In this document: in pieces, positions 62,120 to 63,146 of the stretch
Numbering within the stretch: the first letter of the stretch is position 1
Layout: every line of letters starts with the position of its first letter
Sequence record: PP488543.1
DNA: 64,000 nucleotides
Source: Escherichia phage BP9
Strand: one strand, 5' to 3'
Program-made: the position numbers and the translations under genes
The notes under the pieces: model-generated
Seen by the model: only the letters and a program-made list of their open reading frames with translations
The model's database searches: none
What the model was told of the DNA's origin: nothing

Positions 62120-62148
62120 TTGACAAACTTTGCTTAACAGTGTAATAT
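62120..62148 (+). promoter_or_regulatory. sigma70-like promoter (TTGACA-17-TAATAT) ahead of tRNA cluster
   Basis: TTGACA 62120-62125, TAATAT 62143-62148. Confidence 0.5.
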
Positions 62149-62206: not shown

Positions 62207-62281
62207 GCCCTGTTAGCTTAGTGGATAAAGCAGCGGCCTTCTAAGCCGTTGACACTGGTTCGAGTCCAGTACGGGGTGCCA
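62207..62281 (+). tRNA. tRNA-Arg (anticodon TCT)
   Basis: Hand-folded cloverleaf: acceptor GCCCTGT/ACGGGGT, D-stem GCTT/AAGC, anticodon loop CTTCTAA, T-loop TTCGAGT, encoded CCA. Confidence 0.7.
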
Positions 62282-62411
62282 AGTTCTTTTTAATGTAGCT
62301 TACTTTAGCAGAGTAAATCTTCGGCAAGTGGCGGTAACCACTTTACCGATACCTCATAGTTAGTGGTTAGAACACTAGCTATTTTAAAAAGAATTTAAAT
62401 ATTAGTATTTA

Positions 62412-62499
62412 GGTGAGTTAATTCCGTAGGGGTAGCGGGGCAGACTGTAAATCTGTTATCATTGCGATTCGGGTGGTTCGACTCCATCACTCACCACCA
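62412..62499 (+). tRNA. tRNA-Tyr (anticodon GTA), long variable arm
   Basis: Acceptor GGTGAGT/ACTCACC, anticodon loop CTGTAAA, T-loop TTCGACT, CCA encoded; D-arm irregular in hand fold. Confidence 0.55.
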
Positions 62500-62613
62500 A
62501 ATTTATATTTTTAGATGCATAAATCATACAGATAATGGCATTGATATTTATCGTCGTTTATACTAGTCACTAACTGCTCGAAAATCAGTGTCATTATCAG
62601 TATAATTTATAAA

Positions 62614-62704
62614 GGAGGGTAGGGAGCAATGGTGCTCAAGCGGTCTTGAAAACCGTCCCATTGAGGATGACTCGATGATGGTTCGATTCCATTACTCTCC
62701 GCCA
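62614..62704 (+). tRNA. tRNA-Ser (anticodon TGA), long variable arm
   Basis: Acceptor GGAGGGT/ACTCTCC, anticodon loop CTTGAAA, ~20-nt variable arm, T-loop TTCGATT, CCA encoded. Confidence 0.6.
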
Positions 62705-62802
62705 CATTGTTGACCTTGTAATTAAGCGAAAGCCGGAAGCAGAACCGGATTATCAAATGTTACAGTCGTCATCGCCGACTAGCAACATGGTCAACATACT
62801 GA

Positions 62803-62901
62803 GCTAGGTAAGCCCTTTGGCAAGGGCGAGGATTTTTAATCCTGAAAATAGACGAGGTAGTCGTTGAATACATAGGTGGTTCGATTCCACCGCCTAGCAC
62901 C
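62803..62901 (+). tRNA. aberrant tRNA-like element (99 nt; anticodon-loop TTT, oversized variable region)
   Basis: Acceptor GCTAGGT/GCCTAGC, D-arm GCCC/GGGC, loop TTTTTAA, T-arm GGTGG-TTCGATT-CCACC, but ~30 nt between anticodon stem and T-arm. Confidence 0.3.
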
Positions 62902-62906
62902 TTTTT

Positions 62907-62982
62907 GCTGATGTAGCACAATTGGTAGTGCAATTGATTTGTAATCAATAGGTTGCAGGTTCAAGTCCTGCCATCAGCACCA
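62907..62982 (+). tRNA. tRNA-Thr (anticodon TGT)
   Basis: Acceptor GCTGATG/CATCAGC, D-stem GCAC/GTGC, anticodon loop TTTGTAA, T-loop TTCAAGT, CCA encoded. Confidence 0.75.
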
Positions 62983-62983
62983 A

Positions 62984-63058
62984 GGCCCTGTAGCTGGAAG
63001 GTTCAAGCAAGCGACTCATAATCGCCAGACGGTGGTTCAATTCCACCCAGGGCCACCA
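62984..63058 (+). tRNA. tRNA-Met (anticodon CAT; Ile2 not excluded)
   Basis: Acceptor GGCCCTG/CAGGGCC, anticodon loop CTCATAA, T-loop TTCAATT, CCA encoded. Confidence 0.7.
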
Positions 63059-63069
63059 AATAGTAAATA

Positions 63070-63146
63070 CTCCGCGTAGCTCAGCTTGGTAGAGCGCCTG
63101 ATTTGGGATCAGGAGGTCGAGTGTTCGAATCACTCCGTGGAGACCA
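63070..63146 (+). tRNA. tRNA-Pro (anticodon TGG)
   Basis: Acceptor CTCCGCG/CGTGGAG, D-stem GCTC/GAGC, anticodon loop TTTGGGA, T-loop TTCGAAT, CCA encoded. Confidence 0.75.

Follow-up and report, generated by a model that had tools for sequence, protein, structure and literature searches.

A Vequintavirinae family of tRNA-derived five-armed RNAs with a member in the tRNA cluster of Escherichia phage BP9

The last 2 kb of a 64,000-nucleotide (nt) stretch of Escherichia phage BP9 (sequence record PP488543.1; hereafter the window) hold a tRNA cluster on the + strand, and among its genes lies a 99-nt element (62803-62901, +) that has a tRNA frame with an additional hairpin between the anticodon-like arm and the T-arm (Table 1). 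We found here that this element is the rV5-clade member of a previously undescribed, Vequintavirinae-specific family of tRNA-derived five-armed RNAs. The acceptor stem, D-arm, extra hairpin and T-arm that had been named in the original prediction are all present at the positions listed in Table 1, and the stretch of about 30 nt that it placed between anticodon stem and T-arm comes to 31 nt (62844-62874), holding its own hairpin. The T-rich loop that it read as TTTTTAA is there as well (62833-62839 if so read), but the arm is better drawn with five base pairs (bp) and the loop TTTTA, because the pair 62833:62839 (T-A in BP9) covaries between U-A and C-G in 20/23 sequences.

Table 1. The tRNA cluster of phage BP9 and the parts of its tRNA-like element (window positions)
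Feature	Position	Strand	Remarks
Sigma-70-like promoter TTGACA-17-TAATAT	62120-62148	+	Upstream of the tRNA cluster; from a consensus scan; annotated P(tRNA) in the rV5 record
tRNA-Arg(tct)	62207-62281	+	
tRNA-Tyr(gta)	62412-62499	+	
tRNA-Ser(tga)	62614-62704	+	
tRNA-like element	62803-62901	+	
Acceptor stem, 5' strand GCTAGGT	62803-62809	+	Pairs with 62892-62898; 7 pairs, 100% paired (23 sequences), 6/7 compensatory
D-arm, stem GCCC/GGGC, loop TTTGGCAA	62812-62827	+	3/4 stem pairs compensatory
G between D-arm and short arm	62828	+	Position 26 (27 when counted into a G.G mismatch with 62844); invariant in 23/23
Short anticodon-like arm, stem AGGAT/ATCCT, 5-nt loop TTTTA (62834-62838)	62829-62843	+	3/5 pairs compensatory
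A-rich 5' junction strand GAAAATA	62844-62850	+	GAAAA(A)TA in 18/18 first-set sequences
Extra (variable) arm, hairpin GACGA-GGTAG-TCGTT	62851-62865	+	Hairpin here in the 18 first-set sequences
3' junction strand GAATACATA	62866-62874	+	ATACATA then GG invariant in 22/22 core members
T-arm GGTGG-TTCGATT-CCACC	62875-62891	+	100% paired
Acceptor stem, 3' strand GCCTAGC (62892-62898), discriminator A (62899), CC (62900-62901)	62892-62901	+	T next; CCA imperfect
tRNA-Thr(tgt)	62907-62982	+	
tRNA-Met/Ile(cat)	62984-63058	+	
tRNA-Pro(tgg)	63070-63146	+	

Standard predictors recognise the element only at the margin. ARAGORN reports the same interval as "tRNA-???" with a four-base anticodon, atcc, and the Rfam tRNA model (RF00005) matches 62803-62899 with 31.0 bits against a gathering score of 29 (E=6.6e-4), in an alignment with a 26-nt insertion in the variable region and one anticodon-stem position deleted; neither program gave a normal tRNA with other boundaries. 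The arm that ARAGORN draws to reach its anticodon (ATTTT/AAAAT) was rejected, its stem being missing in other genera. Other family members fall below every tRNA-clan threshold in Rfam, where their best model is tRNA-Sec (23-39 bits against 47); one of them, L070, has no match at E<=1, and no Rfam 15 family beyond the generic tRNA-clan models matches the element. Bacterial tRNA-Sec is marked by a 13-bp acceptor/T branch (8/5), a UCA anticodon and G73. We rejected this identity (RF01852) for the family, which has an acceptor/T branch of 7/5 bp, UCA in few members and there without U33, a discriminator that is U or A, and sub-threshold scores. The matches to the Sec model mostly reflect the long extra arm, because the genuine tRNA-Ser of the window behaves alike (41 bits). 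The minimum-free-energy fold of the element is itself a five-arm cloverleaf (-37 kcal/mol, z=-3.8 relative to dinucleotide shuffles), and RNAalifold run on the homologs independently predicted the same arms. A 6-bp D-stem with a 4-nt loop can also be drawn, a point of likeness to class II tRNAs and tRNA-Sec.

The tRNA cluster of the window is 100% identical to that of Escherichia phage vB_EcoM_YN3 and 97-99% identical to those of many Vequintavirus (rV5-like) genomes. BLAST with the element alone returned near-identical copies in Vequintavirus, more divergent ones in Avunavirus (Av-05, 19-1-2) and Seunavirus (NINP13076, GE_vB_MG), and matches to the T-arm only in 4MG and Mydovirus, where reading the loci revealed full-length homologs, none of them called by ARAGORN. 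With the Mydovirus version as query, a further search gave 60 full-length records, not one annotated as a tRNA, whose phages infect Klebsiella, Salmonella, Cronobacter, Enterobacter, Raoultella, Proteus and E. coli. New members also came from pattern scans of IMG/VR and metagenomes whose output was passed through a covariance model: L070 (64-68% identical to its nearest isolates), L071, L072, L083, L133 and L170. The family is spread throughout Vequintavirinae, Erwinia phages included, and extends into metagenomes; the public collections were reached through exact patterns and BLAST, and this phyletic range is a lower bound. A bacterial or archaeal origin was rejected: the signature formed by the 3' junction and the T-arm had no match in 185,579 bacterial and archaeal species (one genome each).

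Evidence that the tRNA frame is maintained comes from two comparisons, one of 18 distinct homologs from four genera aligned with MAFFT (the first set) and one of 23 sequences aligned to the covariance model, R1, that was built from those 18. Among the 18, all 396 of 396 pair cells (cloverleaf plus the tertiary pair 19:56) are paired, against at most 43% when partners are slid, and 9/22 pairs show compensatory change, including 19:56 itself (G:C in ten sequences, U:A in eight). With 23 sequences, 99% of cells are paired and 14/21 pairs are compensatory, values reached by 0/500 shuffles; this alignment was fitted to the model, and the MAFFT result is in agreement. Covariation was counted here per sequence and not per evolutionary event, and the 19:56 switch, like several of the changes in stems, may reflect a single event or a few. 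Compensatory changes occur in all cloverleaf helices, with the acceptor stem at 7 bp and the T-stem at 5 bp. In the D-loop only position 19 varies (second G of the loop, 62820, column 18 of alignment A1), changing from G to U jointly with C to A at T-loop position 56 in 8/18 sequences; because this D-loop G19/T-loop C56 pair covaries to U:A, the tRNA elbow is evidently kept. Within the rV5 clade the sole substitutions in the element affect pair 50:64, which passes from G-C through G.U to A-U, and pair 7:66, which goes from U.G to U-A. Recurrent G.U pairs fit only the + strand. An architecture kept with compensatory changes in other phage genera is no chance resemblance, and the tRNA shape and ends (a 7-bp acceptor stacked on a 5-bp T-stem, the 19:56 pair, the discriminator and, mostly, CCA) are shown to be maintained by compensatory evolution.

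R1 separates the family cleanly from ordinary tRNAs. Members score 79-124 bits, with the window copy at 103.9 bits (E ~3e-26) and the members that were not used for training (L070-72, L083, L133, L170) at 79-104 bits, whereas ordinary tRNAs in ~860 kb of phage and metagenome DNA, class II included, score at most 26 bits each; the model finds one copy per genome. The layout that it describes begins with the 7-bp acceptor stem, the D-arm G-NNN-UUUG(G/U)CAA-NNN-C, a single G and a capped arm of 15-16 nt, and continues with the junction G(A/U)AAA, a hairpin, AUACAUA, the T-arm GGYGG-UU(C/A)GAUU-CCRYC and usually U73-CCA.

Conservation is not confined to the tRNA-like parts. Mean identity across six genera-level lineages is 75% for the element and 81.5% when the extra arm is left aside, compared with 76.7% for the adjacent tRNA-Thr(UGU) and ~62% for neighbouring spacers. 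The most conserved nucleotides of the whole molecule lie in the aberrant region of 31-40 nt, namely in the G(A/U)AAA 5' strand and in the AUACAUA 3' strand that precedes the GG of the T-stem; divergent members carry the 5' variants GAAAACTG, GTAAAACG, GAAAAAGG and GAAAACG. The hairpin between the two strands is free in sequence and length while its pairing is kept: across the first set it spans 3-10 bp, with unrelated stems such as GACGG/CCGTT, CCCTCC/GGGAGG, TCCCCC/GGGGGA and GCTCGC/GCGGGT, among others. Since it holds the most conserved nucleotides, the extra region is ancestral and selected, so that the insertion of the original prediction is no recent acquisition but an old and conserved part of the molecule. 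The same prediction had offered a pseudogene as one explanation, and a decaying tRNA pseudogene with an acquired insertion might indeed have the marginal tRNA-predictor scores and the imperfect CCA of the rV5 clade, or be lost, as happened in one phage. We nevertheless rejected this reading as very improbable. The architecture is kept in no fewer than four named genera as well as in Erwinia-phage and metagenomic relatives, and the compensatory changes at 14/21 pairs were noted above; the supposed insertion is where conservation peaks; and because the element is as conserved as tRNA-Thr and more so than the spacers, it cannot well be decaying.

The arm in the anticodon position is a hairpin of 15-16 nt with a 5-bp stem (4 bp in a few members), closed by C-G in 16 and by U-A in four of the 23 sequences. 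Its loop has 5-7 nt, 5-6 nt in most members, and the loop sequences are unrelated: UUUUA in the rV5 clade, UUAUA in Av-05, CAUCCA, CUUCCA, CAGCCA, CCACCA, CCUCCA, CCUCAA and CAUCA in Seunavirus and Mydovirus, and AUCAA, CAUCAAA, AAUCAAG and GUGAUA in others. A canonical elongator tRNA has a 7-nt anticodon loop on a 5-bp stem, with U33 and a purine at 37. The family departs from this pattern; a 7-nt loop is reached in the window only through a 4-bp stem, and U33 occurs outside the rV5 and Av-05 clades in L120 (CUUCCA) only. tRNA variable regions measure 4-5 nt in class I and up to ~24 nt in class II, sizes that are exceeded both in the window (31 nt) and in Seunavirus and Mydovirus (39-40 nt). 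The viral and metagenome scans brought up no relative whose anticodon loop is canonical. The family has no conserved anticodon, and what is specific to it is a module of two A-rich single strands around a free-sequence hairpin.

These comparisons bear directly on the original prediction's suggestion of a tRNA-Lys(UUU)-like gene, which does not hold at the level of the family but has a basis in one clade. The UUU reading is found in the rV5 clade only, as is the discriminator A73, and since loops elsewhere differ in sequence, UUU is a peculiarity of that clade. It is conceivable, if unlikely, that the rV5-clade element is a working though odd tRNA-Lys(UUU) that reads AAA and AAG, perhaps as a replacement that PARIS or PrrC does not recognise. 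If the U-A closing pair is opened, the loop becomes U32-U33-UUU-A37-A38, and the arm GA-UUUUUAA-UC (GA-YUUUUAA-UC in general form) matches what we take to be the arm of E. coli tRNA-Lys. UUU together with A73 makes up the LysRS identity set, and A73 is found in the rV5 clade alone, the other members having U73. The clade has no other tRNA-Lys, its element adjoins tRNA-Thr(UGU), another PARIS target, and some annotation pipelines apply the tRNA-Lys label. Against decoding, the orthologs have no UUU, mostly 5-6-nt loops and in most cases no U33; the closing pair covaries as a Watson-Crick pair; the anticodon stem would be one pair short, or else nucleotide 26 would be missing; and the strongest conservation is in junction strands for which a tRNA-Lys has no need. 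CCA is encoded by 6/6 genuine tRNAs of the window, whereas the element reads A-CC-T. Mydovirus-type and L070 relatives, moreover, have a normal tRNA-Lys(ttt) alongside the element. It is this family-wide evidence from arm and junction, together with the normal tRNA-Lys(ttt) of relatives, that leads us to rate decoding low; the rV5-clade RNA may, as a peculiarity of that clade, mimic tRNA-Lys.

The 3' end and the surroundings of the element raise two further explanations. The rV5 clade ends in A73-CC-U and most members outside it in U73-CCA. In the window, tRNA-Thr begins 5 nt past the element; in Seunavirus and Mydovirus the element begins 2 nt after the CCA of the upstream tRNA. Such constant abutment would suit an element that has no function as a free RNA and serves the tRNA operon in cis, in its structure or processing; it might be a spacer directing the cuts of RNase P or RNase E for neighbouring tRNAs or, in the rV5 clade, a partial terminator. 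In that clade the T-arm and acceptor are followed by TTTTT, a terminator-like arrangement by consensus scan (62873-62906, +), with tRNA-Thr directly after. We consider a cis role unlikely, given that the adjacent genuine tRNAs already provide processing sites, that a spacer needs neither an invariant A-rich junction nor a covarying elbow pair nor an encoded discriminator and CCA, and that the T-run 3' of the element is missing outside the rV5 clade. The second explanation is an RNA that is aminoacylated but acts off the ribosome, where it would carry an amino acid or bind a synthetase, its identity being glycine-like in most genera; the background of this reading lies in the glycine identity rules and in the non-ribosomal tRNA-Gly of staphylococci. 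G1:C72 and C2:G71 are nearly invariant, U73 and an encoded CCA are present in most members, and many loops have the form N-C-C-A (UCC, GCC, ACC), which resembles the glycine identity set. This reading is nonetheless improbable: G3:C70 is missing, position 3:70 being C:G, A:U or U:A; rV5, Av-05, Erwinia-phage and L170 members have no CC; the sequence has no affinity to the phages' own tRNA-Gly; and we know of no candidate acceptor pathway in these phages. A crude comparison of shared arms, aimed at the parent tRNA, placed tRNA-Cys marginally first and showed no affinity to tRNA-Gly or tRNA-Lys.

Several more exotic readings were also considered. A frameshift or quadruplet-decoding tRNA (atcc), an ochre suppressor or a small self-cleaving ribozyme could be proposed from the ARAGORN output, from the label 'tRNA-TERM' in two records and from the CCUGAAAA...GAA that flanks a helix, respectively. 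All three are scarcely credible: the decoding versions depend on the ATTTT/AAAAT stem that other genera do not have and on TTA and atcc loop registers that are not conserved, and a hammerhead (CUGANGA...GAAA, three helices) was rejected, the G8 position being A in all members (CUGAAAA), CUGA changing to CCGA or CCGU in L070-72 and no Rfam ribozyme matching at E<=10. We likewise rejected an antisense role for the junction strands, whose only complementary match in the 64-kb window is the element itself, as expected by chance; this search did not extend to host RNAs or to the remainder of the genome. A kissing contact between the short-arm and extra-arm loops looks compensatory in UCCA/UGGA (Seunavirus) and GCCA/UGGC (4MG), but involves 4 nt only and was rejected too. 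The complementarity is no better than in shuffled loops (fractions 0.1-0.6) and is missing in Mydovirus and Erwinia-phage members; rV5-clade copies, left unscored by the script, have at most three pairs by eye.

The explanation that we favour, with a probability of roughly 0.5, is a tRNA-derived five-armed RNA that is processed, does not decode and acts as a tRNA mimic; mimicry is likelier than codon reading because of the extra arm, the want of a conserved anticodon and the retention of the family across the subfamily. The RNA is very probably transcribed jointly with the tRNA operon, given that tRNA-Thr begins 5 nt downstream and that the CCA of an upstream tRNA lies 2 nt away elsewhere. RNase P and 3'-end enzymes use the 12-bp acceptor/T stack, the elbow and NCCA. 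Because the determinants read by these enzymes are kept, the element would in all probability be excised by RNase P, with 3' trimming or CCA repair, like its neighbours, and a stable tRNA-shaped RNA that is unable to read codons normally should then accumulate. We hypothesise that this RNA acts in trans, the junction and extra arm forming the surface specific to its work while the tRNA body supplies processing, stability and recognition. By analogy, its most likely role would be to tie up or draw away a factor that binds to the shape of tRNAs, such as a tRNA-cleaving defence nuclease of the host; in the rV5 clade the short-arm cap GA-UUUUUAA-UC and A73 would additionally resemble tRNA-Lys(UUU), a target of such nucleases. 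The tRNA-like decoy put forward in the original prediction is thus compatible with all findings and, as a hypothesis drawn by analogy, is the functional reading that we prefer.

A narrower version, possible but on balance doubtful, would make the element an RNA-only counter-defence decoy or inhibitor of a host PARIS, Septu, retron, OLD or PrrC-type nuclease, with the junction and extra arm as bait and with the rV5-clade cap and discriminator retuned to imitate tRNA-Lys. Precedent exists for a conflict of this kind. The AriB nuclease of PARIS cleaves the tRNAs for Lys (UUU), Thr (UGU) and Asn (GUU), and T5 counters it with resistant tRNAs (PMC11464382, PMC12409363); Septu and retron-Eco7 cut the variable arm of tRNA-Tyr, for which a phage tRNA-Tyr serves as supplement or decoy (PMC13096335); and retron Eco2, a tRNase, defends against Vequintavirinae (PMC12916289).

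A number of points weigh against a non-decoding mimic. The decoy role rests on analogy, and the published cases concern functional nuclease-resistant phage tRNAs, not non-decoding mimics (PMC13096335, PMC11464382, PMC12409363). The rV5-clade arm can alternatively be drawn as a 4-bp stem with the 7-nt loop UUUUUAA, which leaves decoding possible there. The junction strands have no complementary site in the 64-kb window, the analysis identified no partner protein or target, and no report of expression, processing, CCA status, aminoacylation or phenotype of this RNA was found in the literature. Finally, JES2013, a relative that is nonetheless a viable isolate, lacks the element along with tRNA-Tyr and tRNA-Ser, so that the element is dispensable under at least some conditions. 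In JES2013 (L010, ~1137-1232) the 5' portion of tRNA-Tyr has been joined, by way of the similar T-arms, to the element's final ~14 nt (...CACCTAGCACC), a deletion that removes the 3' end of tRNA-Tyr, tRNA-Ser and nearly the whole element and provides a natural knockout strain. The text of the rV5 genome paper mentions no RNA-repair or tRNA-handling proteins (PMC3606486), the phage proteome itself not having been surveyed.

Among known systems the closest precedent is provided by the species 1 and 2 RNAs of T4 (rnaC, rnaD), which are likewise small stable non-tRNA RNAs inside a phage tRNA cluster and whose function was described as unknown in 2022 (PMC9697503). Like the element, rnaC has a tRNA-type T-arm (CCGGGUUCGAAUCCCGG) and a terminal stem. 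The T4 RNAs differ in being 119-139 nt long, in having no five-arm cloverleaf with D-arm and elbow pair, and in belonging to another phage family; homology was rejected, the family model giving 6.9 bits (E ~0.7) on rnaC and no match on rnaD. Class II tRNAs (Ser, Leu, Tyr) and tRNA-Sec likewise form a cloverleaf of five arms, the extra one lying between the anticodon and T arms, but the element has a variable region of 31-40 nt in which conserved single strands of 7-9 nt lie on either side of the hairpin, it has no conserved 7-nt anticodon loop, and class II tRNAs stay at or below 26 bits on the family model. YrlA, a bacterial Y RNA, has a non-decoding module that mimics the acceptor, T and D parts of a tRNA and is reportedly handled by tRNA enzymes; it continues into a Ro60-binding stem and is linked to rsr. 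The element scores 16.6 bits with the YrlA model (RF02553; threshold 69) and has ordinary tRNA ends, and there is no Ro60-type stem, since tRNA-Thr follows after 5 nt. Nuclease-resistant phage tRNAs (T5 Lys, Thr and Asn against PARIS; T5 and T6 Tyr against retron-Eco7 and Septu) are also genes of tRNA clusters. Their value lies in the conflict with host tRNA-cleaving defence, and we propose the same, by analogy, for the element; they are, however, canonical decoding tRNAs with few substitutions at the cleavage site, whereas the element lacks a conserved anticodon and has an extra conserved module. The tRNA-Other of Bacillus cereus is a tRNA-shaped pseudo-tRNA with a regulatory role, non-translational and yet with a phenotype (PMC3399842). 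In a coarse comparison it differs from the element in being chromosomal, of ordinary cloverleaf size and unrelated in sequence.

A literature search found no description of the element, and one and the same gene carries conflicting labels across well over a hundred phage genomes. The records of rV5 and YN3 leave it unannotated; Murica has it as "tRNA-OTHER (Asp|Gly)", the BASEL phages as "tRNA-Lys (AAA)", slur12/16 as "tRNA-???(atcc)" and JLBYU08 and SophiaRose as "tRNA-TERM", and elsewhere it is a hypothetical protein. In the rV5 genome paper the count is six tRNAs, with no mention of the element (PMC3606486), while the table of a 2026 preprint gives EdH4 seven tRNAs, which means that the element was counted as one. 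Inferences about codon usage and anti-defence are distorted where the element is counted in studies of tRNA content; affected claims include that rV5-like phages carry tRNA-Lys. The family is present in well-studied and therapeutically used phages (rV5, PVP-SE1, GAP31 and the BASEL Vequintavirinae), and conservation at the level of a tRNA without decoding in most members points to a non-translational use of the tRNA fold in infection. Amid active study of tRNA-cleaving defence, the element is a concrete and genetically tractable candidate, for which the natural deletion in JES2013 exists. If the counter-defence reading were true, this would be the first non-decoding tRNA mimic shown to be an anti-defence factor, and it might by analogy explain the T4 species 1 and 2 RNAs. 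The family also offers a comparative entry point to the non-tRNA RNAs of phage tRNA clusters, of which T4 species 1 and 2 have been unexplained since the 1970s.

The scans also turned up more distant relatives. A sister type occurs in uncultured phages without an isolated relative (L074 29-137, L125 2016-2122, L140 3631-3737); it scores 38-45 bits on the family model and has the same UUUGGCAA D-arm and the same T-arm, with a middle region of 55 nt. The motif ACUAACAG lies in the extra-arm loop of the L074 type and is also kept in the extra-arm loops of the DP group of Mydovirus and of L070-72. An unrelated 121-kb phage contig (L084 215-318; 18.9 bits) has a tRNA frame with ~48 nt from anticodon arm to T-arm, which suggests that oversized variable regions may recur in phage tRNA clusters.

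Other parts of the cluster are structured as well. The ~130-nt spacer between tRNA-Arg and tRNA-Tyr (62282-62411, +) is missing in rV5, where 4 nt separate the two genes, and present in YN3, JES2013 and several others; it has no Rfam match, is predicted to form a closed multi-branch fold with an 11-bp terminal stem (z=-4.3), and explains BLAST rows of the type '89% covered, 2 pieces'. Folds better than those of shuffles are likewise predicted for the spacers 62500-62613 (+; z=-4.2) and 62705-62802 (+; z=-2.6), the latter taking a cloverleaf-like shape with a terminal stem, and a promoter-like TCGAAA-17-TATAAT lies at 62578-62606. In Seunavirus and Avunavirus a second conserved non-coding block of ~190 nt stands directly 3' of the element (L006 1306-1500, L008 1239-1430, L061 510-700, L005 1301-1500) and is missing from the rV5 clade. 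ARAGORN does not call it in the scanned loci, and it has no Rfam match in L061 or L064. Its predicted fold is again a tRNA-derived frame, which comprises a stem of acceptor type, a D-stem with a structured ~110-nt insertion inside it, an arm of 6 bp whose loop has 5 nt, and a T-like arm of 4 bp; among only four sequences, 16/49 predicted pairs are compensatory.

Some annotations at these loci deserve correction or comment. The class II tRNA-Tyr(GTA) at 62412-62499 (+), missed by ARAGORN, is genuine (39 bits with the Rfam tRNA model; annotated tRNA-Tyr in rV5 and others), and the CAT tRNA at 62984-63058 is called Met in most records and Ile (ATA) in those of the BASEL phages. At least 18 UNVERIFIED 'Campylobacter phage' records (MG0656xx; C12, A147, D1 and others) are 97-99% identical to rV5-like coliphages across the cluster, and their host labels look doubtful. 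In Raoultella phage Ro1 (L063 3-395) an annotated 393-nt coding sequence lies between tRNA-Thr and the element, in K18PH07C1 (OY978784) the match falls on a feature labelled HNH endonuclease, and the cluster of 241Ecol014PP contains an endonuclease of the HNH type too; homing endonucleases seem to be frequent at the locus of the element, like SegB in T4.

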